Source: a virus (Duplodnaviria; Caudoviricetes). From it: a stretch of DNA of 57,014 nucleotides. A program made the position numbers and the translations under genes. The DNA lies in IMG/VR virus record IMGVR_UViG_3300005805_000106, positions 1 to 57,014 of that record, one strand, 5' to 3'. This document shows positions 13,792 through 43,174 of the stretch, one piece after another; positions within the stretch are counted from its first letter, which is position 1, and every line of letters begins with the position of its first letter. The notes beneath the pieces are model-generated. The model was not told where the DNA came from. It worked only from the letters and a program-made list of their open reading frames with translations, and did not search any database.

Positions 13792-15105
13792 TTAGAGGAG
13801 TATAGAGGCCCTCTTACGACCGGGCAACCCCAGCCCTGTCAGGGCGGTAAATGCCCCAACGGCCGCGTCGACCTGGTCATCGTGGTCGCACGCCTCGGGG
13901 AATGAGGAAAATTCGTCGTACCACGACCCCAACCACGGAGCCCGTACCAGCCTCACATTCCCATTTGCCACGGCAGCAGCAAATGGACGAGCCCGCGTCA
14001 CCTTGTCGCCACTGGGGCGGATGGGCATAAAATCATATCCAGGAACAACATATCTGGCGTATTGGTCAGCCAGTGCCTTGCCCGATGAACCAGGCTCCTG
14101 CTCCATTCTTATCGCCACCCCGTAGCCATCTTCTTCGGCTGTTTGGGCAATAAGGCGCTCAACCTTGTCGCCCTTTTCCCGTATCCGCTTTACATCCAGC
14201 ACATAAAATATCCCGTTGTCGTGGAGCATCAAAACCCCAACCGTCCAGTCGGGGTCCGGATTGGAGGGTGACGGCTCGGTTGCGGCCAAGTCCCAATACC
14301 TCACAACCCGTGCGGACGGGCTGATTGTTGGGATTTCACCACCGTCAATGACCACAAATGAGGTTCTATCAAATAATGTACCAAGCGTAGTGCTCCACCA
14401 GTCGCCCTCTTCAAGGCGTCTGCGTTCTACTGGGTCAAGGGCAGATAGGGCCTGCCGATACGAATCGGCATCAATTCCAGGGTTATCAGTCAAACGTGAA
14501 GGAACAAATATCCTACCTTCGGACCGCCCCTCAACAATAAAGCGTTGCCTGACCCAGTTTGGCGCAGGGTTTGATGCGCATCTCATCCTTAGGGGGACCT
14601 GGGATATAGGGCCACTGGCAGGACGGCGGAGTCGAGAGAACAGGTACCGGTAGTCGGACTCCCTAATTTCGGTCACCTCGTCCATGCCGATGAACTGAAA
14701 CTCCGAGCCCTTATATCGCAAATAGTCGTTTACGTTATTTAAATAACCGAACGATATTCTCGCGCCGGACGGGAATGTGGCGACGAACGTATTGTTATTC
14801 CAGTGAACATCATCGTAGTTGCTCATCCACGACTTAAATCTGTCCATCAAGGCTCCAGGCAGAGATAAGTCGGCAAATGTACGCCTAAACAAAATCGCCG
14901 AATAGCCAGGAACATCGACATATTGCAGGGCGGCCATCAATAGTGCTGATGATTTTCCACCGCCAGCAGCGCCTCCAAACAGGGCCTCAATCGCACTAGT
15001 TCTTAGAAACACTTTCTGGTTAACCGACGGTTCTTCTGGGCAAAAATGTGGCTCTATTGGCTGGAGGTAGTTCAATACCTCTTGCCAGTTTGGAGTGCTC
15101 GCCAT
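13792..15105 (-). CDS. terL: Terminase large subunit
   Basis: GGAAGGGKS Walker A, IGMDEVT Walker B, ASNP, YWDLAAT and HDDQVDA nuclease motifs. Confidence 0.95.
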   Translation of the reverse strand: MASTPNWQEVLNYLQPIEPHFCPEEPSVNQKVFLRTSAIEALFGGAAGGGKSSALLMAALQYVDVPGYSAILFRRTFADLSLPGALMDRFKSWMSNYDDVHWNNNTFVATFPSGARISFGYLNNVNDYLRYKGSEFQFIGMDEVTEIRESDYRYLFSRLRRPASGPISQVPLRMRCASNPAPNWVRQRFIVEGRSEGRIFVPSRLTDNPGIDADSYRQALSALDPVERRRLEEGDWWSTTLGTLFDRTSFVVIDGGEIPTISPSARVVRYWDLAATEPSPSNPDPDWTVGVLMLHDNGIFYVLDVKRIREKGDKVERLIAQTAEEDGYGVAIRMEQEPGSSGKALADQYARYVVPGYDFMPIRPSGDKVTRARPFAAAVANGNVRLVRAPWLGSWYDEFSSFPEACDHDDQVDAAVGAFTALTGLGLPGRKRASILL

Positions 15106-15438: not shown

Positions 15439-17592
15439 ATGGGCTGGAATTCACCGCAGAATAAATCAATCAACCAACCGAGCAATAAACAGCTCGGGTA
15501 CGGCATACCAATATCCCTAAATCCATCGTACCAAGGCAAGGCATATAGGGACTCCTGGGACATCGAACGTGCATACCGCGAAGGTATGTCCAAGATTACG
15601 TGGGTTAATAGGTGTATTGACGCAATTGCTGGCAACCAGGCGCGACTACCAATAATCTTGCGCAAAGACAATTCCAACAGAGGAGAAGTTCTGGGAGGGA
15701 AGGAAGCAAAACGCTCAACCCTTTTAGAGCTTCTTAACGTTAAAGCCAATGTTGGCGAGAATTCGTTTATTTTCAGATACAGACTTTCGGCCCAGCTCCT
15801 GCTCGGAACCAGGGGCGTTTTCATTGAAAAAATCAAAGGGCGGGACGGCGGAATTATTGCCCTAAATCTCCTCCCACCACAATCAACATCTCCTATTCCG
15901 GACCCAAAAACATTCGTATCAGGTTTCGAAGTTTTGATGCCAAACGGCGATAAAAAAATACTAAAGCCTGATGATGTCTGCTGGATTAGACGCCCACATC
16001 CAATAGACCCATATCTATCCCTTACACCGCTTGAAGCGTCAGGCGTAGCGATAGAAATTGAAAACCTAGCTAAGTTGTATAACAGAAATTACCTTCTCAA
16101 CGACGGAAGACCAGGTGGTCTGCTTGTCGTTCGTGGAGAAATCGACGACGACGATAAAGAGGAGCTCCGTAGTAGGTTCAGGGGCAACCTAGCCAAAACT
16201 GGGCAAACCACAGTAATTTCGGCCGATGATGGTGTTGACTTTGTTGATACATCAGCCAATCCACGAGACGCCGCATACATCCAGATGCGCCAGGTCACAA
16301 AAGAGGAAATACTTTCAGCTTTTGGCGTACCGGAATCAGTAATAGGAAACGCTTCTGGGCGAACATTTAGCAACGCCGCCGAGGAGATTCGCGTTTTCTG
16401 GATGGAGACAATGCTCCCACACCTCGAGCCGGTGGCTCGGGCGCTAGACGAGCTGGATGATAAATACTACGTCGATTTCGATACATCAGAGGTTCCGATA
16501 CTCATGCTTTATAAGCAAGAGCGCGACAGATATTTGATGTCAGAATTTCAGGCCGGGCTGATAAGCGCAAACGAATACCGCATAGGTTCTTCTAGAAAAG
16601 ACGTTGAAGCTGACCTTGCGGATTCGCTTTTGATGAACCCGAACTTGATTCCAATCGCAAATACCAAGAAAAAGATGGAAGACCCGCAAAGTCAGATGAT
16701 GGGTGGCCCGGGGGCCCCCGGTATGCCCGGTATGCCCCCTGGCATGCCCGGCATGCCACCCGGTATGCCCGGAGCTCCAGCCATGCCCGGCATGCCCCCA
16801 GGAGCCGAAGCCCCACCGCTTGACCCGAACACGATGCAGGGGGCGATGGCTCAAGCCATGGCCGCCGGAGAGGGTGCCGCGCCTGCACCTGCGCCAATGG
16901 CGGGCGGAGAGTTGGCACAGACAACAGTGCCCCCGGAGGCAATGGGGGCTCCTCCGGAGCCACAAAATACACCAAACGGAGAACCGATACTCGCTCCCGC
17001 ATCCATGACAAAAGAGGAAGATACGGGTATAGAGGTCAAATCTGCAGGACCCAGCTACGAGGAAAAAGCAGAAATCGCAATTGAGCGCTGGAGCGACATT
17101 CTTGCTAGGGGAATCGAAAGGGTAATGGAGCGCCAACAGCGCGTCGTTCTTGAAAAGGTCGGCGGGGTCAAGTCCAAAAAGGCTCTCATGTCCGGAACTC
17201 TTGACCTAGACGGAATATTTTCTGTCGACATCTGGAACAAGCAGATGGATGAGGATATTAGACCCGTCATCCTGGCAATAGTCAACGACTCCAGAGATGT
17301 CAAGAGGGAGGGCTCCGCCGATAGGGGAATCAGGGTTAAGTCAATCCCGACGGTTGAGGTCGTTAAACGGGTCGACGCAACGATGAGCCAAATAAAGAAA
17401 ATCAACGAAGGCATCTTTTCCGACATACACGAACTAATGCTCAAGTCCTTCAACTTGTCTAGCGAAGAGGAAAGATTCAAAATGTTCCGCGAGGGAATAG
17501 TTGATGCTTATGCCTATTTCTTTGGCCGCGAACAGCATGAAATAGCCGACTTTGAAACCCGCCGGGCGTGGGCATTCGGTCAGTCATCGTAA
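15439..17592 (+). CDS. Portal protein (HK97 family) with low-complexity linker and C-terminal extension
   Basis: VNRCIDAIA, NYLLNDGRPGG, EILSAFGVPESVIG, TFSNA motifs. Confidence 0.92.
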   Translation: MGWNSPQNKSINQPSNKQLGYGIPISLNPSYQGKAYRDSWDIERAYREGMSKITWVNRCIDAIAGNQARLPIILRKDNSNRGEVLGGKEAKRSTLLELLNVKANVGENSFIFRYRLSAQLLLGTRGVFIEKIKGRDGGIIALNLLPPQSTSPIPDPKTFVSGFEVLMPNGDKKILKPDDVCWIRRPHPIDPYLSLTPLEASGVAIEIENLAKLYNRNYLLNDGRPGGLLVVRGEIDDDDKEELRSRFRGNLAKTGQTTVISADDGVDFVDTSANPRDAAYIQMRQVTKEEILSAFGVPESVIGNASGRTFSNAAEEIRVFWMETMLPHLEPVARALDELDDKYYVDFDTSEVPILMLYKQERDRYLMSEFQAGLISANEYRIGSSRKDVEADLADSLLMNPNLIPIANTKKKMEDPQSQMMGGPGAPGMPGMPPGMPGMPPGMPGAPAMPGMPPGAEAPPLDPNTMQGAMAQAMAAGEGAAPAPAPMAGGELAQTTVPPEAMGAPPEPQNTPNGEPILAPASMTKEEDTGIEVKSAGPSYEEKAEIAIERWSDILARGIERVMERQQRVVLEKVGGVKSKKALMSGTLDLDGIFSVDIWNKQMDEDIRPVILAIVNDSRDVKREGSADRGIRVKSIPTVEVVKRVDATMSQIKKINEGIFSDIHELMLKSFNLSSEEERFKMFREGIVDAYAYFFGREQHEIADFETRRAWAFGQSS
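16702..16810 (+). repeat. PGMP/PGMPP low-complexity coding repeat in portal
   Basis: Imperfect tandem ggtatgccc/ggcatgccc units. Confidence 0.8.
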
Positions 17593-17691: not shown

Positions 17692-20600
17692 ATGAACGAA
17701 ATGTTTGAATACAAATCAACTTCGATTGGTGCTGGTGATTCAAAGTCGGGTGCAATAGATATAGATAATGCTCAGGGAATAGTTGAGTGTTTTGTTGCTG
17801 GCATTGGAAATAGGGACTCGGTTGGCGACATTGTTGCAACTGGAGCATTTACCAAGAGCCTTCAGCGCCGAAAGCCACGTGTTGTTTGGGGCCATAACTG
17901 GAATGACCCAATCGGAAAAGTCCTGGAAATCTACGAGGTTCCAACCACGGACCCGCGGTTGCCGATGAAAATGAAAATGGCAGGGATTGGTGGTCTTTTC
18001 GCAAGGGTCCAATTCAACCTGCAATCAGAAAAGGGCAGAGAGGCGTTCGCAAACGTAGCATTCTTTGGTGAGGAGCAAGAATGGTCAATTGGATACAAGA
18101 CCCTTCGTGCCCAATTCGACCAGAAATCGCAAGCAAACGTCATCTATGAGCTTGAGCTTTATGAGGTATCTCCTGTTTTGCATGGAGCCAATCAGCTAAC
18201 TGGGACTATTTCCGTTAAGGCTGACACAATGCCTGGAGCCGTGGTTGAGATGGATAACCCCGGCCCAATGGCAATCAATAGGGCTGAGATGGAGACACAG
18301 CTATCGCAAGTCATTGGAGCCAAGGTATCTGTCATGGATGTCAATGACGACATGGTTACTTTTGCCAGACGTGAATCCGATGGAAATGTCGGAAGATACA
18401 AGTGCCACTTCAACCACAATAATGGAAGGTTCATGTTTGGCGCTCCACAGCGGATAGTTGTAGTAGCACCAGCCCCACAGGCGCCAGCCCCACAACAGGG
18501 AATGCCTAGCGGTACGCCACCGATGCACAGCACAATGCCACGCGTTGGCCCTGTTGTAATGCGTCCCACACAAATGCCAGCTATCCCCGTAGCCATTAAA
18601 CCCGGCCCGGACGGAATGACAATCGTTCCTCTTCCCCCAGTTCAGTATGACAGCTCGGACAGTTCCGGAAGAAGCCCAGATTTTGATGCCAACAATCTAG
18701 ATAAAGAGGAGTCAGACCTACGTGACGCCCTATTGAAGATTGTGAAGAGGCATGGCAAGTTCAATCAGGACTCAGAGGGTGTGTGGGCTGGATATAAACC
18801 AGCAGCACAAAACCCGGTATCAGGAATAGGCGTGAAATGTGCTAACTGCGTCTTCTACCAGGGTGGTTCGAGCTGCAAGATAATCGACATGGAGATTGAG
18901 GCTGAAGGAAAATGCAGATTTGCCGTAATACCAAACGGCGTTGTAAAGGGTGACTTTGCTTCAAAAAAGAGTTTTGAAGTAGCGCAAGAAATAACCGAAG
19001 ATGAGTTCATAGCAGAACTAGAATTCAAATACCCAGGAGAACTTGCCGTTGCAGCGCTTCGTGGGGCGGTTGGAATGAAGAGGCGCCGGCGTCGTAGGTT
19101 TAAGAATCTGGCGGAGTTTGGTATGCCGGACGACGGAACGGAAGAAAAAGCATACTGCATCCCCGTAGCACCAGAATTTGCTTTCCAGGTAAAGCAGGCT
19201 CTCGACCCAATTTTTGACTACCACTATGCAGAGTCGTTTGTTGACCCAGAGGGAATAGTAATCACATCCGGTGTTACGTACGATTTGATTGACGCCGTAG
19301 ACACAGCGCTCGACAATTTAAAAAAAAAAATATTAAATGACAATGGCCTAGAGGAAAAAGCCCTCGGCTACAGGCTTGGAAGGGCGCTCGGTGCCCGATT
19401 AATAGATAGACCGAATCTCGGCGGTCGACGTGGTGGGTTTGGCGGTAGAGGTCTCGGGATGCCAAACGGCGACCTTAACCCCAAAACAAGACGCGACTCA
19501 AACCTAAACGGAATTATTTTCGACAACATTCCAGGATGGGAACAGCCAGACCCGACACCAAATGACCCCGGTTCAATCAATAACCCAGACCCATCAGCGG
19601 AACAATTAGTTGACTCCGCACGAGATGCGGGCCCAGGAAAACTTTCTTCCGGCGAAATAGGTGGAAAATTCAATACTGAAGGAATGGACCCAAAGATACT
19701 GGCGCGCCTAAACAAGCACCTTGATGAGCGCATTAGGTATGAGGGTCAAATAATGACCAACCGCGAACTTTATGAAAATATAGGAGTAGGTAAAGGCAAA
19801 TACGGATACATCACGCCAAGTGGAAAAACAAGCACAAAATACAAAATTTACGCCGATATGGACAAGGGTTCATATTGGGAGGTTCCAAAAGTTGTTTATG
19901 ACTCGTTTGTTCCTAATTCAAACATAGATACAGACGAAACAGACAAAAATATTACCTCTGCTGCCCGGCCGGATAGAATTAGCGACAGACTTGCATCCGG
20001 CGGACCACAGGCTGCCTATGCGCAACGCTCAAAATTTGATACAAGAAATAGCAAGCTTGCTAATGAAATGTTTTGGAGCCCTGAAAATGGTGGAACGGTT
20101 TCCGTTACCGACAAGGACGGAAAAGTACGTAAATTCACTGGTATCGACTATGAGCGTGCCAGAAAAGCCGGCGCGGCCGCAATTGATAAAGATGACGGCA
20201 TAGATGATTTCATCCGCGAGTTGAGCGGTACGGCAAAGGGGCAGCCCGACCAAAAACCAAATCAAATATCAGATAAGTACAGAAACTACCTAGACAAACT
20301 TCCCAACGAGCGCACAGAAGAAGAGAAAGTTTATTTTGACGGCGCACTGCATAAGTACGCCAAGAGATTGGCGTCGGGTCAGAAGACCGAACTTACGCTT
20401 AAAGAGGGAGAGGAGGCGATAAAGACACAGTACGCGGAAATGGCTGCAGCCGTGCTGAAAGACATGCAAGAGGCAGCAAAAAGTAAAAACAAGAAAACAT
20501 GGAAGACGCCATGGAGAACTATGTTCCTAGGCGTACGAAACCCAACGACAAACAACAGGGCATACGAGGGCTCCAATAGGGTTGCGCTTGCCGCGGTGGC

Positions 20601-23600
20601 AAGAGCGCGTGGATACCAGACAAATAAATGGGCTGGTGCAGCACAGTGGAAGGCGATGGGTGGGAAAATATCGCCCAGCGTTCTTGAAAATCGCGGTGTT
20701 GTAATTCTTGCTCCAGATAAATGGTTAACTCCGATTACGGATAATAATGGAACGGTTATAGGTCAAAAACGCGGATTCCATCCAACTGTCGTATATAACG
20801 TCGCCGATGTTAAGGGTCTTGCGCCCGAGATGTACGAAGATAAGCCATTAGACAATCTTTCTGAATCAGAACGTGTTGAGCAGCTAGAAGATGTAATTAA
20901 GGAAATTCAGCAAGCAACCGGAATGAGATGGCAAGAATCTGGCCAGAGTGCATACTTTTCGCCGGTTGCAGATGAAATTAAAATGCCACCGTTTACAACT
21001 TTCAACTCTCCCCAAGATTTCTATGGAACCCTATTTCATGAAATGGTTCACTGGACTGGCCATACAACGCGCCTGAACAGAAAAGCAATACAAGATATTG
21101 TTAATACTGGTTCAATTGATGATGCGACGAGGGGTTTCGAGGAGCTGGTGGCAGAAATAGGTTCCGTCTTTGCGATGGGCCTTCTTGGTCTAGAGCCAGG
21201 AGTCAGGGAGGACCACATTCCCTACCTCCAGCACTGGATTGCGCATTTGCAAAATGACCCAACAGCGCTTGAGAGGGCAATTCAACTAGCGCAGCAGGGT
21301 GTCGACTATTTGATGGACCGCTCGCCAACACTGCGTCGTGTTGCTGGCAAGAGAGATAATGAAAGAAAAGGCACATCTGGATTCATCATCGATACGCCAC
21401 TCACCGGCAGAAGAGAACTGCCAGATAAGTGGTGGGAGAAACTCAGCATTGAAGCCAAAAAAATACCTGGCCTGCAGAAACGGCACAACAACGTCGAAAG
21501 CATCAATGACCCAGAGCAAAGACCGCAAAAGAAAACAAGAACCGTCAAAGGTGCTGGCTCAAAAGCAGAAAAAACCAAGAGAAACATCGAGCGGGCGGCA
21601 AAATCCGCGGCTGACGAAAGAATGTCAAGCGGAAGAAACTGGCAAGATAATGTTTCAAATTCGCCAACACGCGATGACGACGGCAACGTAATTGACGACC
21701 TCGGGAGACTTGCCAGTGGTGGAACTGGCCCAATCAAGAGCGTCGATGGTGACCCAGAAAAAGATATTGCGCGCTTACCGGAAGATTTCAGCTTCCGTGA
21801 AATGCATGGCGTCAGATATGAGCCATCCGCAGAACAGAGAGTCATATCGGAAATTGCTCTTGGGTTGCTTTTTGATAAAAAGAATCCGAAACGCATAATG
21901 GCAATTAGTGCTGGCGCCGGTACGGGCAAAACAACAACTCTGCAAAATACGATGATGGCCCTTAAGCATGAATTCTTGCTTCACGATTCCCTATTCCGTG
22001 CTGGTAATGAAAATAGATTAGACAGAAAACTAAAATATCTAAAAGACAAGTACGGAATTACCCCAAGAGTTAGCAAGCCAACGGCGGAACGCGGTAGCGA
22101 AGAGTACTTTCAGCAAATAACAGCTTTTAAGAACGACATCATTCAGCTCGCAAGAGAAGCCGGATTTAACCCAGAGCCAAATGGGTACTACACGGTTTTC
22201 AACCGTGATGCACAGGGCGACGCTGCCCCCAATACGCCTGATAATACAGGCGTTGCAACGGTATCTAAATTTACGTGGTGGTCAATGATGATGGGCCAGT
22301 TGGACGAGAAATTCGGCCCCGAACTCAAAGAAAAATTAAAACTAATGCTTCAACGCGATGTGCGCGCTCGCACTTTTGAAAAAGGTCCAGATGGAAAAAT
22401 ATTAATAGACCCAGCTACTGGAAGAAGGGTGTATAAAAAATTTGAAGCACCGCACAAAACTGAAAAAAACCCAGACGGCACGCCGAGAATTGTGGTCACC
22501 AATGGACTGCCGGCAACTCCAGAAGAACTCGGCTATCAAGATGTTAAGAATCAAAGCACATTTATAAACCCCCTACGCCTAGAAAGTCGATTCGGCATCT
22601 CTAGTTCTGAGAAAAAGTGGAGAACAGATAGAGTTGTCGAGGCGCCGAGCGAATTTCCCGCCATTGTTGAAACAACGAAAAAAGGGCCTCGCGGCGGAAC
22701 GGAAAAAATTAGACAGCTAGAAATGGTTGACAAACTAACACCCAATGAATATGTTTATGCGCTGAGAAATGCGCTAAATAGATTCATGAACAGCGAAGAT
22801 AGTGAAATTAGTGCAAAACACTTCATACCGACCGGTATGTATAGAAGACATGAAGTTGATTCGCCAAAAGACGACCCCACAAAAGCCCAGGATTACGACT
22901 GGATAGACGAAAAATTAATACCGGACTCTTGGGTAAAAGATGCACAAGAGATGTGGTCGCTATATATAGACCCAAATTCAACAGTGCTACCGAATCAAAA
23001 CATTGTGGACAAGCTTTGGTCTTTATCTGACCCCGACCTCACGTCCGACCCGGGCTTACTTGGAAATACACCCGGAGTAGACCTTCTTGATGTAAACCTA
23101 CCAGGCACATTCAAGATAGGCGACATAGTGGATAGGGGGGACGGAAAAACTTGGGTTGTCAGGAGCATAAGTGGTGCCGCCGGTGGAGACCAAAAAGGAA
23201 ATGTATCGAAAAAAAATAAGGTTCAAATAGCCGTTCAATATGGAACAAAAGATAATCCACTTGGTGTCTTTTATATAGACGAAGCGCAGGACCTAAACCC
23301 GGCAATTGTATCTGTCTTGCAAAAACACGCAGGAAAAATAAACCTAATCCTTGTTGGTGACGACAGACAAAAGGTTTATGGATTTAGAGATGTTGTTAAC
23401 TCAATGGCCCTTGTCCCGGCTGATTATCGTCCGGAAATCAAGGAGTCACGGCGTTACGGTTCAACAATACAAAACCTAGCGAACCTTGTACTCGCGAATG
23501 AAAACCTAGAAGACGAACGAGATGGAACAGAAGGACCATTCAAGCATGTAATTGGTTTAGCAGAAGCAGTAATAGAAAAAGATTTTGATTTTAACTTTGA

Positions 23601-26600
23601 CCATATTGCAGACCCGGAAGAGGCAAGACAGGCTCGCGTAGAAAAATTATTTGATAACGACGGAAAATACCATGAAAGAAGGTTGGAGCTACTCACGGAT
23701 GCCGTTTACTCACAGCTGACATTTTCCCCCGATGCCACCCTTGACGAAAAGAAACAAAGACTTGCCGAAATTCAGCAGGAGTATGGGGTAGCGCTTAAAT
23801 CAAAAGGTGGACAGGGTCAAAAAACAATTGACTTAACAAAACTTAGTGATGATGAGATAAATAGCTGGTCGGAATTGCGCGGCACCGAAAAACAACCACT
23901 TCGCCAAGTAGTGCTTGGGAAAATAAGCGCATACATAAACGAGTCAACAAAAAGTCTATATGAATTATATAAAGAAACTCAAAACGAGACGGATGATAAA
24001 AAGAAAAAAGTAGCCGAAGATGCTTTCGCAAATGAATTACGACTAAGAAAGAGAATCCTGCTGGATGATGCACGGGGAACAATAACAGATGACCCATATG
24101 TTCGACATGATGCAATTCTTGCTGCTACAAACGAGGGGGTTTTAGCAGAAGCAATACTAGCAATGAGCTCAGTTCCGCTTCGCTATGACACAAATGGAAA
24201 CATCATCCCAGCAACCATAGCAATATCATCCACAAAACATGCAGAGATGATTGCATGGATTGACCACATGAATTGGGTACTAATGGTGGAAAAGGGCATA
24301 CTTACTAAGGATTCTCCAAAGCCAAGGAAATCTGAGTACATAGGTGGAATATGGGACTTCGGCGGAGTAATGCAAAAGGCAATGCAGGGTGGTAAAGATG
24401 CTGCACAACACCGCACGCTTCTTAGCCTCTGGCAACAGGGGATAGAAAACCCGGATGACCCCGACAATCCCCTCATCCCGGCGGGGGCGCCACTTTCCTA
24501 TTGGAGAGATTTGCTGGCACAGTCCCCAAGGGATGTGGCTGATATTAATCAGAAATGGATTGAGTGGGCAGAACAGAACCCTATTACCGTTCCCGGTAAG
24601 CCCCCCAAAGCAAGAACGCCCCTTCCGGAAATAAAGGGCAGTTTAGTTCCAGCAAGAAATAGAAGACACGGACTGGAATTTGTCAAAGAAACACAGGATA
24701 CGTTGACAGAGAAGTCAATGTTAGCAGCGCCAGCCAGGGCGGGCGGTGGACGTGGTCAGGGTGGTGCACGTACGCGCGGAACTGCTTACCAAATTTTCGG
24801 ACCGGGAAAACAACATAGTTCACTCGAAGAAATTTCATGGAAACTTGAGCTAGATGAAAACAATAATTGGACAGGCGCAGTAATTGTTTACGGACGCGGA
24901 CTACAGGCAATCAACCGGACTGAGCAATTAGACCTTCCAGTACAAATTATCGAAGACCCACAAAATCCCGGGTCGTACATCAGAAAAAGCTTAATAACGA
25001 CCGCTCAGGGCATATATAGAAAAGACTTAATAGATATTCTTGAGAGAACAAATTACTTTGAAGACAAAGTAAAAGTCGTGCCGAGAATAGTACCTAGCAA
25101 AAACATGAAAAATGCAGATGGTTCCGGCTCCGCCCCAGCGGGTTACTTTGATGGCGTCCGCATACAGGGAGCTGATGCTAAGGAAACAGCAGAAATATTA
25201 AACCGTCTGAGGGGCGCTTTAGTTAAGTCCGCAGAAGAAGTTAATGCGGACACGGAGGTAACAACATTTCAGCTATCAAAAGGACGGGAATGGAATTCAG
25301 TAAAACTTGGCGAGGACTTTACCCTTGTTCCCGGTCCTCGGCTTGAAAAGGACAATCCGTGGGTAGAAAAAATCGACCCCGAAGGACCAGACACCCCAGA
25401 CAATCTTAGATGGAAGATAGACCCACGCACCGGAAAACCGCTAACTGCGGAGAAAAGGAGGGAGGGTCTTCACAATGCATATGTTGCAATCACAAGAGCA
25501 AAACGGCGCATTGACCCTGGTAGTGCGATTTCCGGTTTGGTTTTAGCAGAAAAAGTTACGCAAAAAGAAAAGGAAGCAATAAAAAGAGCGATAGCCGACG
25601 GAAGGATGGCTCCAGAGTTTGATATTCCGGATAATTTAAATAATCCGTATGATGGTGGCGAACAATCTAAAAGAGTTCTAGTACCACAATTTGACCCAAA
25701 CATTGATGCCAGGGAGGCAATTGATGGAGAAAAGTGGTTTGGCACACCAGACACCACTGACGTTCCACGTCCAAATGATGATGATGAATTGGGTGAGGCT
25801 GACGAGGACACTTCAATTGGAATTTCTGATATAGATGAAAATTTTGATATGTTGGAGCAAGAGCGTGAGTCCGAGTCAGCTTCGGATGTGCAAGTCGACG
25901 AAACCGATATAGACGATGATGAAATCGGAAGGCTGTCGTCCGGAATATCCGTTACACAAAATAACCGCGCCGACAGAAGAAGACGCGTCTATTCACAACT
26001 ACGTCGTGGGGATATAGAGTACCAAACAACAAGACCGGGCCAGAAGCGCGTAGTTGGAATGGGTGAAAAATTAAGAGCGTTCCTAGATATAAGACCATTG
26101 AACTCTGACGACCGCGCCGACCGTGAGGCAGCCCAGTATGCCCTGGAAGAGTCAATGCAATTGTGGGACATATTTAGACAAACAGGAATTGCCCTAGACG
26201 TTGGCCCAGCCGATATAAGTCCAGAATCTTCAGCGAGAAAAAAGGCCGTAAGAGATGGCATAGAGGCTGTTGGCGAATTAATGCGTGGCCGTAAGGTCGC
26301 CATTGGAAATATATCTACAAATAATAATCCAGAAAATCAATCAAAAGACAAATGGATGCTACCGGTAGACAAACTGCTTGAAGCAATTAGATTCCCCACT
26401 AACTGGAAAAAAACAGAAACAGAAACGGCCAAGAGAATTGAATATCTACCCGGGTATGTATCACCGGATGACAAGAAAAACAGGTCTGATGACTTAGTAG
26501 AAACGCAATCAAGAATAGACGTATCTGAGTCAAGAAATTTAACCCTGGACGAGCTAGCAACAATGCTTGGTATATCAGGAAAAGATAAAGAAAGCAGAGA

Positions 26601-28020
26601 GGCTAGAGAGGCGCTTGGCAGGCCTGGCGCCGGAATCAGCCATGCAGATATGCACTTTCTACTGGGCGCCCTCGCTGAAGCAGCTTCACCAGACAAAGAG
26701 CAACGTAGCACTGGTATTGTCAAAAAAGGGTTTAGATACTTCCCTCAATGGAAACTTTTCGGCGCAGTCGATGGAGATGACTGGCAAAATCTCGATATGA
26801 AGAATCCACTTGAAGCATTAGAGCTTGGTATCAGGCGCGGCGAAATGAGAGACAGATTTATCATTGAAACATTTGGCAAAGATGCATTTCCTCTTTGGTT
26901 TGACAGAACAGAAGGTTCACTGATTGATGGAATAAGAAGTGGAATGGTCATCGACCAGGATGCATACGACGAGCTTGAAACACTTGGGCGCGATGGCCAG
27001 AGAGCTAGATTCCTGGCACAGGGAAGATTTGATAGAGAAGACGGAAGCCTCGGCATGGAGTCACGTGCCGACGATGAACTGATTTACGGCGGAACGGATA
27101 ATCCCACGATTGGAAAATTATCGCCGGATGATATGGGTGTATCAAGGGAAGAATTTAATTCTATATTTGACCCCGGCTCCGATGATTCGCCAGTATCAGA
27201 AAAAGTTCAGCGCGGGGAATTAAATATCGAGCCGTTGCTTGATTATTTCGGAATACAGAAAAAGGGTGACTGGAGAGGCAATCTCCGCCTAAGACTCGTT
27301 AAAGAATTTGGAAAAACGGGAGAAAGCTCACAGGTTCCAGGATTTACCAAAGATGAGGAGTGGTCGACGTCTGGTGTCCCGACAGCGTGGGTCCAAATAA
27401 TGATACAACGGGGAATTATCCCCTCAGCGTCGGCCATATGGAAAGAAAATAGGGCTGGCGAACGCCTTGATGATGAACTATCGCTTAGGACGGCTGCTGT
27501 AACAGAGGCGCTGCTTGGCTTCATCAATAGAGGCTCGCTGAGGGATTCGGAGTATTTCAATCCTAAAAACATTCAACAAATCCTTAAGAATGCTGGTTAC
27601 GCTAAACTCCTGCGCGCAGAGGCAGATGCTCGCGGTCCCGTATTTGCACCTAGAAAGGGAGATGCTCCAAGATACTCCCGTCGCCAATTACAGGACGTTG
27701 TTAACAGATTTAATGAAGTATTTGGAACAGAATACACAATCGATGATATTTTTAGCGATGAACAACTGCGTCAAGCTAGACAAAGAATTGAAAACGGCGA
27801 AGTGAGCGTGCCGAAGCCGGTTAAAAAAGCAAATGTAAAAATTAAGAAGCTTCCGAGTGACGACGGCAGGCTTGAGGTTCGCTGGGTTGACGCTGATGGA
27901 AAGACACAACAAGAATATTTCAACACCTTCGATGACGCCGAAAAACGCAAGAAGGCGATTGTTGCAATGCTTGAAGGCGCTACAGAGGAAATTCAGGACA
28001 GCGGGGACGACGAAGAGTAG
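17692..28020 (+). CDS. Giant polyvalent protein: HK97-type prohead protease + Cys4 domain + ArdC-like ssDNA-binding/zincin + SF1 (UvrD-like) helicase + C-terminal Arm-type DNA-binding-like domain
   Basis: DSVGDIV..GAF, WGHNWNDPIG, WSIGY, LYEVSPVLHGAN (protease); WKTPW, YEGSN, VYNVADV, HEMVHWTGH, EELVAEIG (ArdC); AGAGTGKTT, IDEAQD, VGDDRQ, SRRYG, SKGREW, YVAITRAK (helicase). Confidence 0.85.
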   Translation: MNEMFEYKSTSIGAGDSKSGAIDIDNAQGIVECFVAGIGNRDSVGDIVATGAFTKSLQRRKPRVVWGHNWNDPIGKVLEIYEVPTTDPRLPMKMKMAGIGGLFARVQFNLQSEKGREAFANVAFFGEEQEWSIGYKTLRAQFDQKSQANVIYELELYEVSPVLHGANQLTGTISVKADTMPGAVVEMDNPGPMAINRAEMETQLSQVIGAKVSVMDVNDDMVTFARRESDGNVGRYKCHFNHNNGRFMFGAPQRIVVVAPAPQAPAPQQGMPSGTPPMHSTMPRVGPVVMRPTQMPAIPVAIKPGPDGMTIVPLPPVQYDSSDSSGRSPDFDANNLDKEESDLRDALLKIVKRHGKFNQDSEGVWAGYKPAAQNPVSGIGVKCANCVFYQGGSSCKIIDMEIEAEGKCRFAVIPNGVVKGDFASKKSFEVAQEITEDEFIAELEFKYPGELAVAALRGAVGMKRRRRRRFKNLAEFGMPDDGTEEKAYCIPVAPEFAFQVKQALDPIFDYHYAESFVDPEGIVITSGVTYDLIDAVDTALDNLKKKILNDNGLEEKALGYRLGRALGARLIDRPNLGGRRGGFGGRGLGMPNGDLNPKTRRDSNLNGIIFDNIPGWEQPDPTPNDPGSINNPDPSAEQLVDSARDAGPGKLSSGEIGGKFNTEGMDPKILARLNKHLDERIRYEGQIMTNRELYENIGVGKGKYGYITPSGKTSTKYKIYADMDKGSYWEVPKVVYDSFVPNSNIDTDETDKNITSAARPDRISDRLASGGPQAAYAQRSKFDTRNSKLANEMFWSPENGGTVSVTDKDGKVRKFTGIDYERARKAGAAAIDKDDGIDDFIRELSGTAKGQPDQKPNQISDKYRNYLDKLPNERTEEEKVYFDGALHKYAKRLASGQKTELTLKEGEEAIKTQYAEMAAAVLKDMQEAAKSKNKKTWKTPWRTMFLGVRNPTTNNRAYEGSNRVALAAVARARGYQTNKWAGAAQWKAMGGKISPSVLENRGVVILAPDKWLTPITDNNGTVIGQKRGFHPTVVYNVADVKGLAPEMYEDKPLDNLSESERVEQLEDVIKEIQQATGMRWQESGQSAYFSPVADEIKMPPFTTFNSPQDFYGTLFHEMVHWTGHTTRLNRKAIQDIVNTGSIDDATRGFEELVAEIGSVFAMGLLGLEPGVREDHIPYLQHWIAHLQNDPTALERAIQLAQQGVDYLMDRSPTLRRVAGKRDNERKGTSGFIIDTPLTGRRELPDKWWEKLSIEAKKIPGLQKRHNNVESINDPEQRPQKKTRTVKGAGSKAEKTKRNIERAAKSAADERMSSGRNWQDNVSNSPTRDDDGNVIDDLGRLASGGTGPIKSVDGDPEKDIARLPEDFSFREMHGVRYEPSAEQRVISEIALGLLFDKKNPKRIMAISAGAGTGKTTTLQNTMMALKHEFLLHDSLFRAGNENRLDRKLKYLKDKYGITPRVSKPTAERGSEEYFQQITAFKNDIIQLAREAGFNPEPNGYYTVFNRDAQGDAAPNTPDNTGVATVSKFTWWSMMMGQLDEKFGPELKEKLKLMLQRDVRARTFEKGPDGKILIDPATGRRVYKKFEAPHKTEKNPDGTPRIVVTNGLPATPEELGYQDVKNQSTFINPLRLESRFGISSSEKKWRTDRVVEAPSEFPAIVETTKKGPRGGTEKIRQLEMVDKLTPNEYVYALRNALNRFMNSEDSEISAKHFIPTGMYRRHEVDSPKDDPTKAQDYDWIDEKLIPDSWVKDAQEMWSLYIDPNSTVLPNQNIVDKLWSLSDPDLTSDPGLLGNTPGVDLLDVNLPGTFKIGDIVDRGDGKTWVVRSISGAAGGDQKGNVSKKNKVQIAVQYGTKDNPLGVFYIDEAQDLNPAIVSVLQKHAGKINLILVGDDRQKVYGFRDVVNSMALVPADYRPEIKESRRYGSTIQNLANLVLANENLEDERDGTEGPFKHVIGLAEAVIEKDFDFNFDHIADPEEARQARVEKLFDNDGKYHERRLELLTDAVYSQLTFSPDATLDEKKQRLAEIQQEYGVALKSKGGQGQKTIDLTKLSDDEINSWSELRGTEKQPLRQVVLGKISAYINESTKSLYELYKETQNETDDKKKKVAEDAFANELRLRKRILLDDARGTITDDPYVRHDAILAATNEGVLAEAILAMSSVPLRYDTNGNIIPATIAISSTKHAEMIAWIDHMNWVLMVEKGILTKDSPKPRKSEYIGGIWDFGGVMQKAMQGGKDAAQHRTLLSLWQQGIENPDDPDNPLIPAGAPLSYWRDLLAQSPRDVADINQKWIEWAEQNPITVPGKPPKARTPLPEIKGSLVPARNRRHGLEFVKETQDTLTEKSMLAAPARAGGGRGQGGARTRGTAYQIFGPGKQHSSLEEISWKLELDENNNWTGAVIVYGRGLQAINRTEQLDLPVQIIEDPQNPGSYIRKSLITTAQGIYRKDLIDILERTNYFEDKVKVVPRIVPSKNMKNADGSGSAPAGYFDGVRIQGADAKETAEILNRLRGALVKSAEEVNADTEVTTFQLSKGREWNSVKLGEDFTLVPGPRLEKDNPWVEKIDPEGPDTPDNLRWKIDPRTGKPLTAEKRREGLHNAYVAITRAKRRIDPGSAISGLVLAEKVTQKEKEAIKRAIADGRMAPEFDIPDNLNNPYDGGEQSKRVLVPQFDPNIDAREAIDGEKWFGTPDTTDVPRPNDDDELGEADEDTSIGISDIDENFDMLEQERESESASDVQVDETDIDDDEIGRLSSGISVTQNNRADRRRRVYSQLRRGDIEYQTTRPGQKRVVGMGEKLRAFLDIRPLNSDDRADREAAQYALEESMQLWDIFRQTGIALDVGPADISPESSARKKAVRDGIEAVGELMRGRKVAIGNISTNNNPENQSKDKWMLPVDKLLEAIRFPTNWKKTETETAKRIEYLPGYVSPDDKKNRSDDLVETQSRIDVSESRNLTLDELATMLGISGKDKESREAREALGRPGAGISHADMHFLLGALAEAASPDKEQRSTGIVKKGFRYFPQWKLFGAVDGDDWQNLDMKNPLEALELGIRRGEMRDRFIIETFGKDAFPLWFDRTEGSLIDGIRSGMVIDQDAYDELETLGRDGQRARFLAQGRFDREDGSLGMESRADDELIYGGTDNPTIGKLSPDDMGVSREEFNSIFDPGSDDSPVSEKVQRGELNIEPLLDYFGIQKKGDWRGNLRLRLVKEFGKTGESSQVPGFTKDEEWSTSGVPTAWVQIMIQRGIIPSASAIWKENRAGERLDDELSLRTAAVTEALLGFINRGSLRDSEYFNPKNIQQILKNAGYAKLLRAEADARGPVFAPRKGDAPRYSRRQLQDVVNRFNEVFGTEYTIDDIFSDEQLRQARQRIENGEVSVPKPVKKANVKIKKLPSDDGRLEVRWVDADGKTQQEYFNTFDDAEKRKKAIVAMLEGATEEIQDSGDDEE

Positions 28021-28184
28021 CCAGGGCAAATTGTCTACTGCTATAGACATTTTTAATACACTATTGATGCTAAACTAAATGGTGATACTGCTTATCATTG
28101 CTGCGTTATCGTGATAGGTTATACTTAAAGATATTTCACAACGTTTGTCATCACTGACATTCATTGCACAAAATCAGGAGTTCT

Positions 28185-29720
28185 ATGAGCTACGACGAAA
28201 AAGCGACTGTAGGCGTTGATGCCGATGGGAATGTACTCAAGTGCGCAAAGGGAGCTGCTCCTGGTGAATGTGGGTATGTAAAGGGTGCAGAGCTCTGCGC
28301 AAAGTGTGGCGCAATGGCAGTTGAGATGAAGATGGTTCCCGCTATGGGCGATGAAGAGCAGATTATGCCACCCAAAAAGAAGCCGGTGATGTCAGCAATT
28401 GACGAGGAAGAGATGGGCGACGAAGAGGAAATGTCGTCTACAAAGGGTTACGGCAAGCCCGGAATGCCAGTATCTGCTGATGTCCCAGTAGAGGACATGG
28501 AAGAGGAGATGCCGGAGGACGAGGAAATGGTCCCGGGCAGAAAGATGGGCAAAAAGTACCGTCAGTCAATGAAGGCCATGCCAATGGACATGGAAGACGA
28601 AGAGGACATGGACGAGGATGCCATGGACGAAGAGGATGACGAGGCCATGCCCGCAGTGCGGCGCCCAATGTCACCAGCAATGGATGAAGACGAAATGGGC
28701 GAAGACGAAGAGGAAATGGATGAGGAGGAGGACGAAGAGGAAGAGGAAGAGGAGGCAATGCTTGGCGAAAAAGCCTTCTCACCGCTGGACAGCGAGTGGG
28801 AGCAGCTCCGCCGTCAGCGTATTTCTTCGATGGGTCTAAAGTCCGCCGACCTCGGCGCTCATGGCTATGTGTGTGCACTGGAGAGAAAGGCATACGCCGG
28901 AGCTAGCCCTGTATGCGAAGACTGCCCTGGTGGCTGTGTTTCGGAAAAAGGCATGCCGGGAATCCTTCATGTTGAGGGTCTTGCTGAGAAAATGTTTAAT
29001 GGAGTTGTAATTGACTCCGGATATTCAAGCGACGCCGACATGTTCGTAGTAGATGTTCAGACAAAAGATGGTTCCGTAAAGGAAGTTTTCATCGATGGCA
29101 GTAGCGCCGAGATTATGGGTTTCCACAAGCTAGATGCCTCGCAGTACGAGCAAAAATCAGATATCGGGACATACAGGCTGATTGACTTCACCGAAGCGGC
29201 AGAAATTGCAGTCAAGTCAATTGACGGTCATGTTGTTGCTGTTGAGCCTGACATTTTTGAAGGCTTTGATGCTTACGCTGTTGAGATTGAGGGTTTTGAC
29301 GGTAAGTCTTACGATGTATTCGTTGCGCTCGATGGCGAGGTTCTCGGTTACGACAAGTACGAGCTAGACGAGGCAGAAAGCATTGAAGCCGAAGCTGCCG
29401 AGATAGCCCTGAAGAGGGCCTTCTCTGAAGACCGTAGGATGGAACTCGCTAAAGACGGAATGGCGATGCCTGATGGTTCGTACCCAATCGTCTCCGAAAC
29501 AGATTTGCGCAATGCTATTCAGGCTTTTGGCCGGGCAAAGGATAAAGAGGCCACAAAGAAACACATCATGAAGCGCGCTCGCGCCCTAAAGATGGAGAGC
29601 CTAATTCCTGCAAATTGGCTTGCGCGAAGTGAAGAGAAGAGCACCGGGATTGACGATGCAAACTTCATGGCATCACTAGTTGAATTCCAGTTGCTTGAAG
29701 ACTCAATCGATAACAACTAG
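28185..29720 (+). CDS. Acidic head-region protein with Cys clusters, two PepSY-like repeats and a C-terminal PDGSYPI domain
   Basis: AGGAG RBS; D/E/M-rich tract; EAAEIAVKSIDGHVVAVE..AYAVEIE..GKSYDVFVALDGEVL; GMAMPDGSYPI..DLRNAIQAFGRA. Confidence 0.6.
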   Translation: MSYDEKATVGVDADGNVLKCAKGAAPGECGYVKGAELCAKCGAMAVEMKMVPAMGDEEQIMPPKKKPVMSAIDEEEMGDEEEMSSTKGYGKPGMPVSADVPVEDMEEEMPEDEEMVPGRKMGKKYRQSMKAMPMDMEDEEDMDEDAMDEEDDEAMPAVRRPMSPAMDEDEMGEDEEEMDEEEDEEEEEEEAMLGEKAFSPLDSEWEQLRRQRISSMGLKSADLGAHGYVCALERKAYAGASPVCEDCPGGCVSEKGMPGILHVEGLAEKMFNGVVIDSGYSSDADMFVVDVQTKDGSVKEVFIDGSSAEIMGFHKLDASQYEQKSDIGTYRLIDFTEAAEIAVKSIDGHVVAVEPDIFEGFDAYAVEIEGFDGKSYDVFVALDGEVLGYDKYELDEAESIEAEAAEIALKRAFSEDRRMELAKDGMAMPDGSYPIVSETDLRNAIQAFGRAKDKEATKKHIMKRARALKMESLIPANWLARSEEKSTGIDDANFMASLVEFQLLEDSIDNN

Positions 29721-41815: not shown

Positions 41816-43174
41816 ATGTCGGAAGACAAGGCCCGTATAGATGAGCTACAATCAGCTCTTCGTCAGAAGATGGCAGACAATAAGACCATCGCTGATTCAT
41901 TCAAGATTGAGGACGGCACAGTAGTCGTTTCCTCAGAGCAGAAGACAGCGTTCGACAAGAACATGCGTGACATCAAGGAAATCAAGTCACTGCTTTCAGA
42001 CCTTCAGGAGATGAGCGGTGTTGACTCTTGGTCATCACAGCCGGCCGGCGAGTCAGTCTCGTCAGCATATGCTGCTGCTGCCGCCGAGGCAACACAGCTG
42101 ACATCTCGTGAAATCAAGAGCATTGGCGCAATGTTCCTCGATTCACCAGAGTTCAAGTCACTTGCGAACGGCAAGAATGGCGCAAACATGGCCGCCCCGT
42201 GGCAGGCCGGCGTTTCGCTAACTGGCTACAACGTAAAGGACGTCTATTCAGCTCTGCCAACAACAGATGTCACCGGTAGCCGGCTCGGCTCGTTCGGCAC
42301 AGTTCAGCGCGACCCGATGGTAACGCCGCCAATGCGCACAAAGCGCGTTCGCGACCTCTTCCCGGTTCGCACCACAACTGCTGCTGTCATCGAGTACTTC
42401 CGTCAGCTCGGTTTCACCACGCTGCAGGCTGGTCATGGCACAAACTCGGCTTCTTCGGTTGCTGAGCGTAATGCCGGCAACACAGCGTTTGGCCTCAAGC
42501 CGCAGTCGTCCTTCGCCTTCGTTGGCGAGCAGGCGCCGGTACGCACCCTCGCGCACTGGGAGGCTGCACACCGGAACGTTCTTGCGGACGAGCCACAGCT
42601 ACGGTCAATCATCGACAACGAGCTCATGTACGGCCTACGCCTTCTTGAGGATAACCAAATCCTCAACGGCGACGGTGTCGGCGAGAACCTGCTCGGCGTT
42701 CTAAATACCCCGAACATTCAGGAGTATGCATGGTCGTCGGGTGCGGTTACCCCGGTTGCGGACACAAAGGCTGATGCTCTGCGTCGTGCCGCGACACTCT
42801 CATTCCTCGCGTACTACGAGCCGTCAGGCATCGTTCTGCACCCGAATGACTGGGAGGACATCGAGCTGACAAAGGACGAGAATGGCCAGTACCTCATCGC
42901 GGTTTCTGTCGCAATGGGTGGCGAGCCACGCGTCTGGAGAATGCCAATCGTCGACACGCCGGCAATGACCGAGGGCACGGCCCTGGTTGGTGCCTTCGGT
43001 ACCGGCGCACAGCTGTATGACCGCGAGCAGGCCAGCATCCGTATCTCTGAGCAGCACTCAGACTTCTTCATCAGGAACGCGATTGTCATCCTGGCCGAGC
43101 AGCGTCTCGCCCTGGCTGTCAAGCGCCCGGAGGCTTTCGTCAAGGTCGACTTCGACGAGGCTCCATCCGCCTGA
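41816..43174 (+). CDS. Major capsid protein (HK97 fold)
   Basis: Coiled-coil delta domain, VRDLFP, EDNQILNGDG, LHPNDW, LAEQRLALAVKRPEAFVK; AGGAG RBS; strongly biased codon usage. Confidence 0.95.
   Translation: MSEDKARIDELQSALRQKMADNKTIADSFKIEDGTVVVSSEQKTAFDKNMRDIKEIKSLLSDLQEMSGVDSWSSQPAGESVSSAYAAAAAEATQLTSREIKSIGAMFLDSPEFKSLANGKNGANMAAPWQAGVSLTGYNVKDVYSALPTTDVTGSRLGSFGTVQRDPMVTPPMRTKRVRDLFPVRTTTAAVIEYFRQLGFTTLQAGHGTNSASSVAERNAGNTAFGLKPQSSFAFVGEQAPVRTLAHWEAAHRNVLADEPQLRSIIDNELMYGLRLLEDNQILNGDGVGENLLGVLNTPNIQEYAWSSGAVTPVADTKADALRRAATLSFLAYYEPSGIVLHPNDWEDIELTKDENGQYLIAVSVAMGGEPRVWRMPIVDTPAMTEGTALVGAFGTGAQLYDREQASIRISEQHSDFFIRNAIVILAEQRLALAVKRPEAFVKVDFDEAPSA

Follow-up and report, generated by a model that had tools for sequence, protein, structure and literature searches.

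A conserved run of A's at the protease-cargo junction of a giant phage ORF as a probable slippage site

A giant protease-cargo ORF with a run of 11 A's

The DNA analysed here (the window, 57,014 bases) is a whole virus record of IMG/VR (IMGVR_UViG_3300005805_000106; Duplodnaviria, Caudoviricetes) with an estimated completeness of 38%, and the records holding its sequence are lake and freshwater metagenomes. It carries an open reading frame (ORF) of 3442 amino acids (aa) in which a predicted head protease is followed by a giant cargo, with 11 consecutive A's (A11) at the junction of the two. Comparison of this junction with its relatives makes it very probable that the A-run functions in slippage, by whichever mechanism. 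The features on which the argument is built are the following:

17692..28020, plus strand: zero-frame ORF of 3442 aa, protease fused to leader, ArdC-N, MPTase-PolyVal and UvrD-like helicase modules
17692..19329, plus strand: common coding part, aa 1-546, in both the short and the long predicted products
19320..19330, plus strand: putative A11 slippery run; the core NNA AAA AAA AAA is conserved, and the 11th A is the first base of the Ile codon ATA
19334..19336, plus strand: +1 frame stop TAA; predicted 547-aa product with the C-terminal end KKKY, which needs one A lost from the RNA
19338..19340, plus strand: -1 frame stop TGA; predicted 549-aa product with the C-terminal end KKKNIK, which needs an extra A in the RNA or a ribosomal -1 shift
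19351..19419, plus strand: leader module EEKALGYRLGRALGARLIDRPNL (EEKA..RLIDRP), directly after the putative slip site, in the long product only

From position 19315 onwards the frame of ORF 17692-28020 reads AAT TTA AAA AAA AAA ATA TTA AAT GAC, the A11 starting at the third base of codon 543, running through Lys 544-546 and ending on the first base of Ile 547. An earlier reading of this DNA, made without database searches (the sequence-only reading), had placed the 11 A's at 19320-19330 and the stops at TGA 19338 and TAA 19334, and its coordinates and reading phase were all found correct when the sequence was re-read. The in-phase T_TTA_AAA heptamer that it had also described is present in the window but is not conserved, relatives having AAC CTA, AAC ATA or AAT GTA at this place; what is conserved is the core of 9 to 10 A's (A9-A10). 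A11 is the sole A-run of at least 9 in the window. In the window alone it lies within chance, with 55 of 100 dinucleotide shuffles reaching or exceeding the observed A9 match count, and its significance therefore rests on the comparison with relatives.

The length of the run is not an artefact of one assembly, a possibility that the sequence-only reading had itself raised, because gap-free contigs from two other studies cross it (X3 record 5, 18649-20134; X5 record 10, 19033-19421). A related locus with 98% amino-acid identity (L003) likewise has A11. The matching records are contigs, not reads, and the single RNA run among them (X20) covers 20110-20292 only. A gap in one further contig (X1, which ends at 19304 and resumes at 19387) was not taken as heterogeneity of the run.

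The part common to both products comprises an S78 protease, a small beta domain, a Cys4 linker, a helical hairpin and an alpha/beta domain (aa 488-551). Peptidase_S78 (PF04586) is matched at aa 30-173 of the ORF with 42.9 bits (gathering cut-off 21), the same region matches the phrog_80 profile (E 1.5e-26), and a structure model of aa 1-660 matches the fold of T4 gp21 at a Z score of only 6.3 (root-mean-square deviation 4.8, 117 aligned residues). H68 and S132, the presumed S78 catalytic pair by analogy with HK97, are invariant in 35 protease sequences. Also invariant in these 35 sequences are C383, C386, C395 and C408 (window 18838-18915); this Cys4 motif (aa 383-408) probably forms a small knuckle that binds metal within the linker of the short form, where the structure model is poor. 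The remaining fold matches of the model are generic helical hairpins (Z score of 7.5 or less), and neither these nor the match to T4 gp21 point to a function for the leader or for the domain at aa 488-551. In the model, whose mean predicted local distance difference test score (pLDDT) is 56.5, the alpha/beta domain reaches a block pLDDT of 72-89 and KKK closes its last helix (530-551); residues 547-593, right after KKK, have a pLDDT below 50 and are predicted to be disordered, which would place the slip site at a domain boundary.

Conservation of the run and of its alternative frames

Related loci were collected from viral contigs, of which the best 80 of 420 were kept and 79 could be examined (L075 ends before the site). 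The homologous codon carries the run in 73 of the 79 loci, as A10 in 62, A11 in two and A9 in nine; among the remaining six, one contig (L024) ends in the site and five (L077-L081) are without the 15-codon segment that holds it. Homologues lacking the run, or using AAG codons in its place, had been singled out by the sequence-only reading as evidence against slippage, and what the 73 loci display is a run kept against synonymous drift. Two further scans, covering viral and metagenome contigs, brought the total to 233 loci, which fall into 70 clusters at 97% amino-acid identity; 29 of the clusters have the run at codon 524-546 and three others runs of at least 9 elsewhere in the ORF. Long homopolymers are confined to this gene almost without exception: all 79 homopolymers of at least 9 in 841 kb of related loci lie inside it, and another 459 kb has 28, of which 27 are again in this gene. 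The remaining one (C19, at L211:3991) sits at the extreme end of a metagenome contig and most likely arose in assembly.

The run is conserved at the nucleotide level beyond codon usage. Among 27 in-frame representatives of the run-bearing clusters (codon alignment of 1980 nucleotides), Lys 544, 545 and 546 are coded by AAA in 27/27, 27/27 and 26/27 sequences, whereas the 17 other invariant Lys columns (20 in total) have AAA in just 5-18 of 27. Of 466 gap-free columns with at least three codons, the single one with an invariant third base is codon 543, directly before KKK, where TTA (10), ATA (7), CTA (7), GTA (2) and ACA (1) all occur; at sites of identical amino acid, different codons are used at 56% on average. 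The A9 core is the sole invariant nucleotide stretch of at least 8 in the alignment, and an earlier set of 34 representatives gave the same picture.

In every one of 29 representatives, stops close both alternative frames shortly after the run, at a distance of 1-6 codons in the -1 frame and 0-5 codons in the +1 frame, even though the residues encoded downstream vary; a -1 stop within 6 codons combined with a +1 stop within 3 has a background probability of 0.064. RNAalifold found 0 conserved pairs in the roughly 100 nucleotides downstream of the run in 28 sequences, and no Shine-Dalgarno-like motif was visible 10-16 nucleotides upstream of it in alignment A1, as judged by eye and not by a formal scan. 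A role of the AT-rich run as an internal promoter or terminator was rejected, the A's alone being conserved and no hairpin with them.

In three loci (L074, L167 and L168) the genomic register is different: TTA or ATA is followed by AAA AAA AAG (A9), the protease ORF stops at 548 aa, and the cargo sits in the -1 frame, where no stop interrupts it for at least 827 codons. Ahead of the run, this cargo frame is open for 11 codons with no start codon among them, and its first start-like codon lies 59 codons downstream of the run, past the leader. L167 and L168 are metagenome contigs from two different assemblies. Because their protease parts differ at 51 of 540 codons (37 synonymous, 14 non-synonymous), the out-of-frame state is old, and with 134 synonymous against 64 non-synonymous changes the cargo looks constrained. 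A cargo frame that is open, seemingly constrained and without a nearby start would therefore be reachable only if the reading shifts by -1 or the RNA gains an extra A. Other A9 cases are L166 and L010, the latter although four loci of its 95% cluster (L005-L008) have A10.

Short proteins ending at the run are also found among public gene calls, in a sample that was selected for length and is therefore not random. Calls of 534-548 aa, from at least six 90% clusters (P0002, P0003, P0004, P0006, P0008 and P0009), end no more than 7 residues from KKK. Searches with P0002 in viral and metagenome contigs did not retrieve the contigs encoding P0002, P0003, P0008 or P0009, whose run lengths are deduced from protein ends only. 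P0011, from a divergent clade, ends at another KKK, and in P0016 and P0017 the end falls at the same boundary but KKK is absent. The proposal of the sequence-only reading that slippage yields a protease of about 550 aa beside the fusion is supported, at the level of sequence, by the conservation of the run, the stops in both frames, the short gene calls and the out-of-frame lineage.

Leader, junction motifs and neighbouring genes

The module that follows the slip site, which the sequence-only reading had called shared, is also found in another ORF of the window, where EEKA..RLIDRP recurs in a second copy:

51985..52053, plus strand: second leader copy, residues 24-46 of ORF 51916-57012 (NUDIX and RNase_T); 57% identity, E 5e-4

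The similarity extends over the first ~100 residues of ORF 51916-57012 (51916-52220), and this copy is nearer still to the post-junction region of the L077 clade (L077:2160-2470; IDIPTGG...DGWADEGTT.PVWVG). In its sequence, the post-slip segment looks like a portable leader carried by cargo proteins.

A pentapeptide, [RK][LM][AS]SG, is repeated in three giant ORFs, with 6, 3 and 4 copies in ORFs 17692, 29736 and 51916, respectively:

19639-19653, 19987-20001, 20365-20379, 21619-21633, 21706-21720 and 25930-25944: copies in ORF 17692
residues 1272, 1451 and 2044: copies in ORF 29736
residues 804, 851, 1140 and 1509: copies in ORF 51916

The 4972 aa of the other window ORFs hold 0 copies, and shuffling gives a mean of 0.035 per ORF. 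Every copy lies downstream of the slip site, and relatives hold 0-11 copies. These pentapeptides are candidate cleavage or junction sites of the prohead protease.

Relatives without the KKK site bear other A9 or A10 runs in the same ORF, which again code for KKK (L077, L078 and L081 in 'LSSGRKKKGK', as well as L080 and L081:7689). The long A-runs recorded in such relatives and in the out-of-frame lineage are:

L077:4350, L078:9805, L081:8941, L176:6314 and L177:5768: A9
L074:3525 and L167/L168:4500: A9 of the out-of-frame lineage
L080:4821, L179/L180:4369 and L081:7689: A10

Several of these adjoin LSSG motifs, and all but one have stops in both alternative frames. In the window, an A8 run (TCG AAA AAA AAT, 23209-23216) is found at codon 1840 in the helicase part, with alternative-frame stops 1 and 4 codons off; L067 and L012 have A8 in a similar region with other flanks, and a run of eight is shorter than the length considered slippery.

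Beyond the leader, the cargo part of the 3442-aa ORF contains ArdC-N (aa 913-993), MPTase-PolyVal (aa 1070-1196) and then a UvrD/AAA_19 helicase. Several effector domains are thereby joined in one phage ORF, as in polyvalent proteins, and this ORF lies next to portal and terminase genes. The head genes of the window are:

13792-15105, minus strand: large terminase gene
15439-17592: portal gene, which precedes the 3442-aa ORF
41816-43174: major capsid gene

A 518-aa ORF (28164-29720) matches, with its residues 450-499, positions 545-591 of the 607 of phrog_80, the PHROG profile for head maturation proteases, at its C-terminal end (E 3e-4), and may share a capsid-binding tail with protease-scaffold fusions. 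A blastn search of the window DNA against cultured phages gave no match. The closest cultured phages are actinophages, with a capsid identity of 47-48% (Brevibacterium phage Cantare, Gordonia phages). In a protein search of the ORF against cultured phages the protease domain alone was matched, with 39-41% identity (Gordonia and Brevibacterium phages), and the protease-cargo fusion was therefore not found in any cultured relative.

Polymerase slippage, its alternatives and known systems

For the kind of slippage, our preference goes, with modest confidence, to a specifically transcriptional event, in which RNA polymerase would slip on at least nine A's and produce mRNAs with one A more or one less. 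The unslipped mRNA would give the 3442-aa protease-cargo fusion, and slipped mRNAs, in either alternative frame, would terminate 1-3 codons on and give a stand-alone protease of 547-549 aa, one gene thus supplying two forms in a set ratio. Many copies of the protease and few of the giant cargo would then enter the procapsid, where the protease would cut the cargo free; a 3442-residue appendage on every protease copy would crowd the head, which would be the rationale for two forms. We infer that it is the polymerase rather than the ribosome that slips, that the two forms are made in a ratio and that packaging into the capsid and cleavage follow. The data fit slippage by the polymerase because the conserved length is at least nine, A's are kept beyond the last seven, stops are found in both frames and no stimulatory structure is conserved. 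In passages of PMC1088944 and PMC5009743, nine is given as the usual run length for efficient slippage of bacterial RNA polymerase.

Several observations weigh against polymerase slippage at a selected site. By a first-order analytic estimate, one A-run of at least 11 is expected in the window with P ~0.20. The sequence A_AAA_AAA or A_AAA_AAG, which stands in phase at all sites, is a classical ribosomal -1 heptamer as well. No run of at least 9 is found in 38 of the 70 clusters (in two of these since the contig stops before the site), and several run-less lineages still keep a continuous fusion ORF; the fusion architecture does not, therefore, require the site.

The best of the alternatives, programmed -1 frameshifting by the ribosome on this heptamer, would account for the truncated protease of the in-frame lineages and for the fusion of the A9 lineages. 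All sites have the heptamer in phase, it reads A AAA AAG, as in Escherichia coli dnaX, in L074/L167/L168, in L166 and in the in-frame L040 group, and exactly a -1 shift is what the out-of-frame lineages need. However, seven A's suffice for the ribosome, yet positions 1-3 of the A10 are equally invariant, including a wobble base that is kept in five different codons. Moreover, there is neither a conserved structure downstream nor, by eye, a Shine-Dalgarno-like motif upstream, and a -1 shift alone leaves the kept +1 frame stop unexplained. We therefore regard ribosomal frameshifting as rather unlikely to be the mechanism at work.

Phase variation at the DNA level, in which replication slippage would heritably alter the run length and toggle the cargo fusion within a population, is improbable and was the weaker of the two options offered by the sequence-only reading. 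It could account for the A9 of L010 in a cluster of which four members have A10, for run lengths ranging from 9 to 11 across lineages and for the length-picked public gene calls ending just past KKK. However, L010 is alone among the 73 run-bearing loci in differing from its cluster, and the near-uniform run length within each lineage makes phase variation less likely as the principal mode. Unlike a fast switch, the out-of-frame state of L074/L167/L168 has outlasted a divergence at 51 of 540 codons, the A11 of the window is reproduced in the contigs of two other studies, and an off state would cost the cargo in all particles of a burst. Finally, the absence of any recoding, with KKK kept for protein function and the A's due to codon preference or to an assembly artefact, is very improbable and close to refuted: although AAA makes up 61% of the Lys codons in the window, so that the peptide L-KKK-I yields A11 about 7% of the time and the run is within chance there, other invariant Lys columns mix AAA and AAG, the wobble base of the variable preceding codon is invariant (1 of 466 columns), long runs are absent elsewhere in 1.3 Mb of relatives (C19 at its contig end being the sole exception), and independent assemblies have the same length.

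The mechanism we favour, slippage by the polymerase, is already known; the gene context is new. Its nearest precedent is dnaX of Thermus thermophilus (Larsen et al. 2000), described in passages of PMC1088944 and PMC5009743 as an A9 run on which polymerase slippage truncates about half of the product, with stops near in both non-zero frames. As in the tau/gamma system of Thermus, a sense-strand A-run of at least 9 lies in one long ORF whose zero frame encodes the long product, slips that are not a multiple of three lose the C-terminal functions through stops in both frames, and no stimulatory structure is needed. Unlike Thermus dnaX, the gene encodes a phage head protease with its cargo and not a clamp-loader subunit, the run is A10-A11 and not A9, some lineages have the register reversed, so that the zero frame encodes the short form, and slippage is here a prediction from sequence comparison.

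The -1 frameshift of E. coli dnaX is stimulated by an upstream Shine-Dalgarno-like element and a downstream hairpin. These stimulators are without a conserved counterpart here, where conservation reaches beyond the heptamer. What the two have in common is an in-phase A-rich heptamer (A_AAA_AAG in E. coli dnaX, as presented in part of PMC1088944; A AAA AAG in the A9 lineages) and a predicted truncated product that ends just past the site. Slippage on A or T runs that restores a longer product, as reported in the same part of PMC1088944 for Shigella mxiE and genes of insertion sequence (IS) elements, resembles the A9 lineages L074/L167/L168, L166 and L010, which need one extra A in the RNA; unlike in mxiE and the IS genes, the ORF of the window is already continuous.

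A further parallel is with retroviral Gag/Gag-Pol, where, according to a section of PMC5009743, a structural or assembly protein is produced by itself and, at lower frequency, as an enzyme-bearing fusion for later cleavage by the viral protease; packaging and cleavage would be the corresponding steps here. L074, L167 and L168 have the exact Gag/Gag-Pol register, in which the zero frame gives the short form and a -1 shift the fusion. Unlike in Gag/Gag-Pol, most lineages, the window included, have the fusion in the zero frame, and the carrier is the protease itself. As for the cargo, the ORF resembles the polyvalent proteins treated in parts of PMC5512222 (Iyer et al. 2017), with ArdC-N, MPTase and helicase domains in one phage polypeptide beside head genes. 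Assemblin-like peptidases are said there to be 'always' C-terminal, whereas the S78 protease is N-terminal here (aa 30-173 of 3442).

The words 'frameshift' and 'slippage' are absent from the text of PMC5512222, as are 'prohead' and 'scaffold' from the first 300,000 characters of the review by Atkins et al. (PMC5009743), and literature searches of titles and abstracts found no slippage or frameshift site in a prohead or maturation protease gene. Truncating slippage sites are described in part of PMC1088944 as hard to spot by comparison, as no new coding sequence arises. For a site of this type the comparative support is unusually clean, both genomic registers being found in nature. Slippage would populate each of the three frames, so that the genomic register could flip between lineages. 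We tentatively propose that these lake phages of about 150 kb may use a Gag/Gag-Pol-like logic, in which the head protease would be the packaging handle for a giant anti-defence cargo, polymerase slippage on one A-run would set the ratio of bare to fused protease, the register would flip between lineages without the loss of either product, and, in other clades, further A-runs next to [RK]L[AS]SG junction peptides would give graded truncations of the cargo.

For annotation, it follows that protease/cargo gene calls split at this A-run are not to be taken as pseudogenes or sequencing errors. If the proposed mechanism is true, a tailed phage would rely on recoding to adjust the amount of a capsid-packaged cargo polyprotein to that of the phage's own maturation protease, which would link the arms race fought with polyvalent proteins to the assembly of the phage head.

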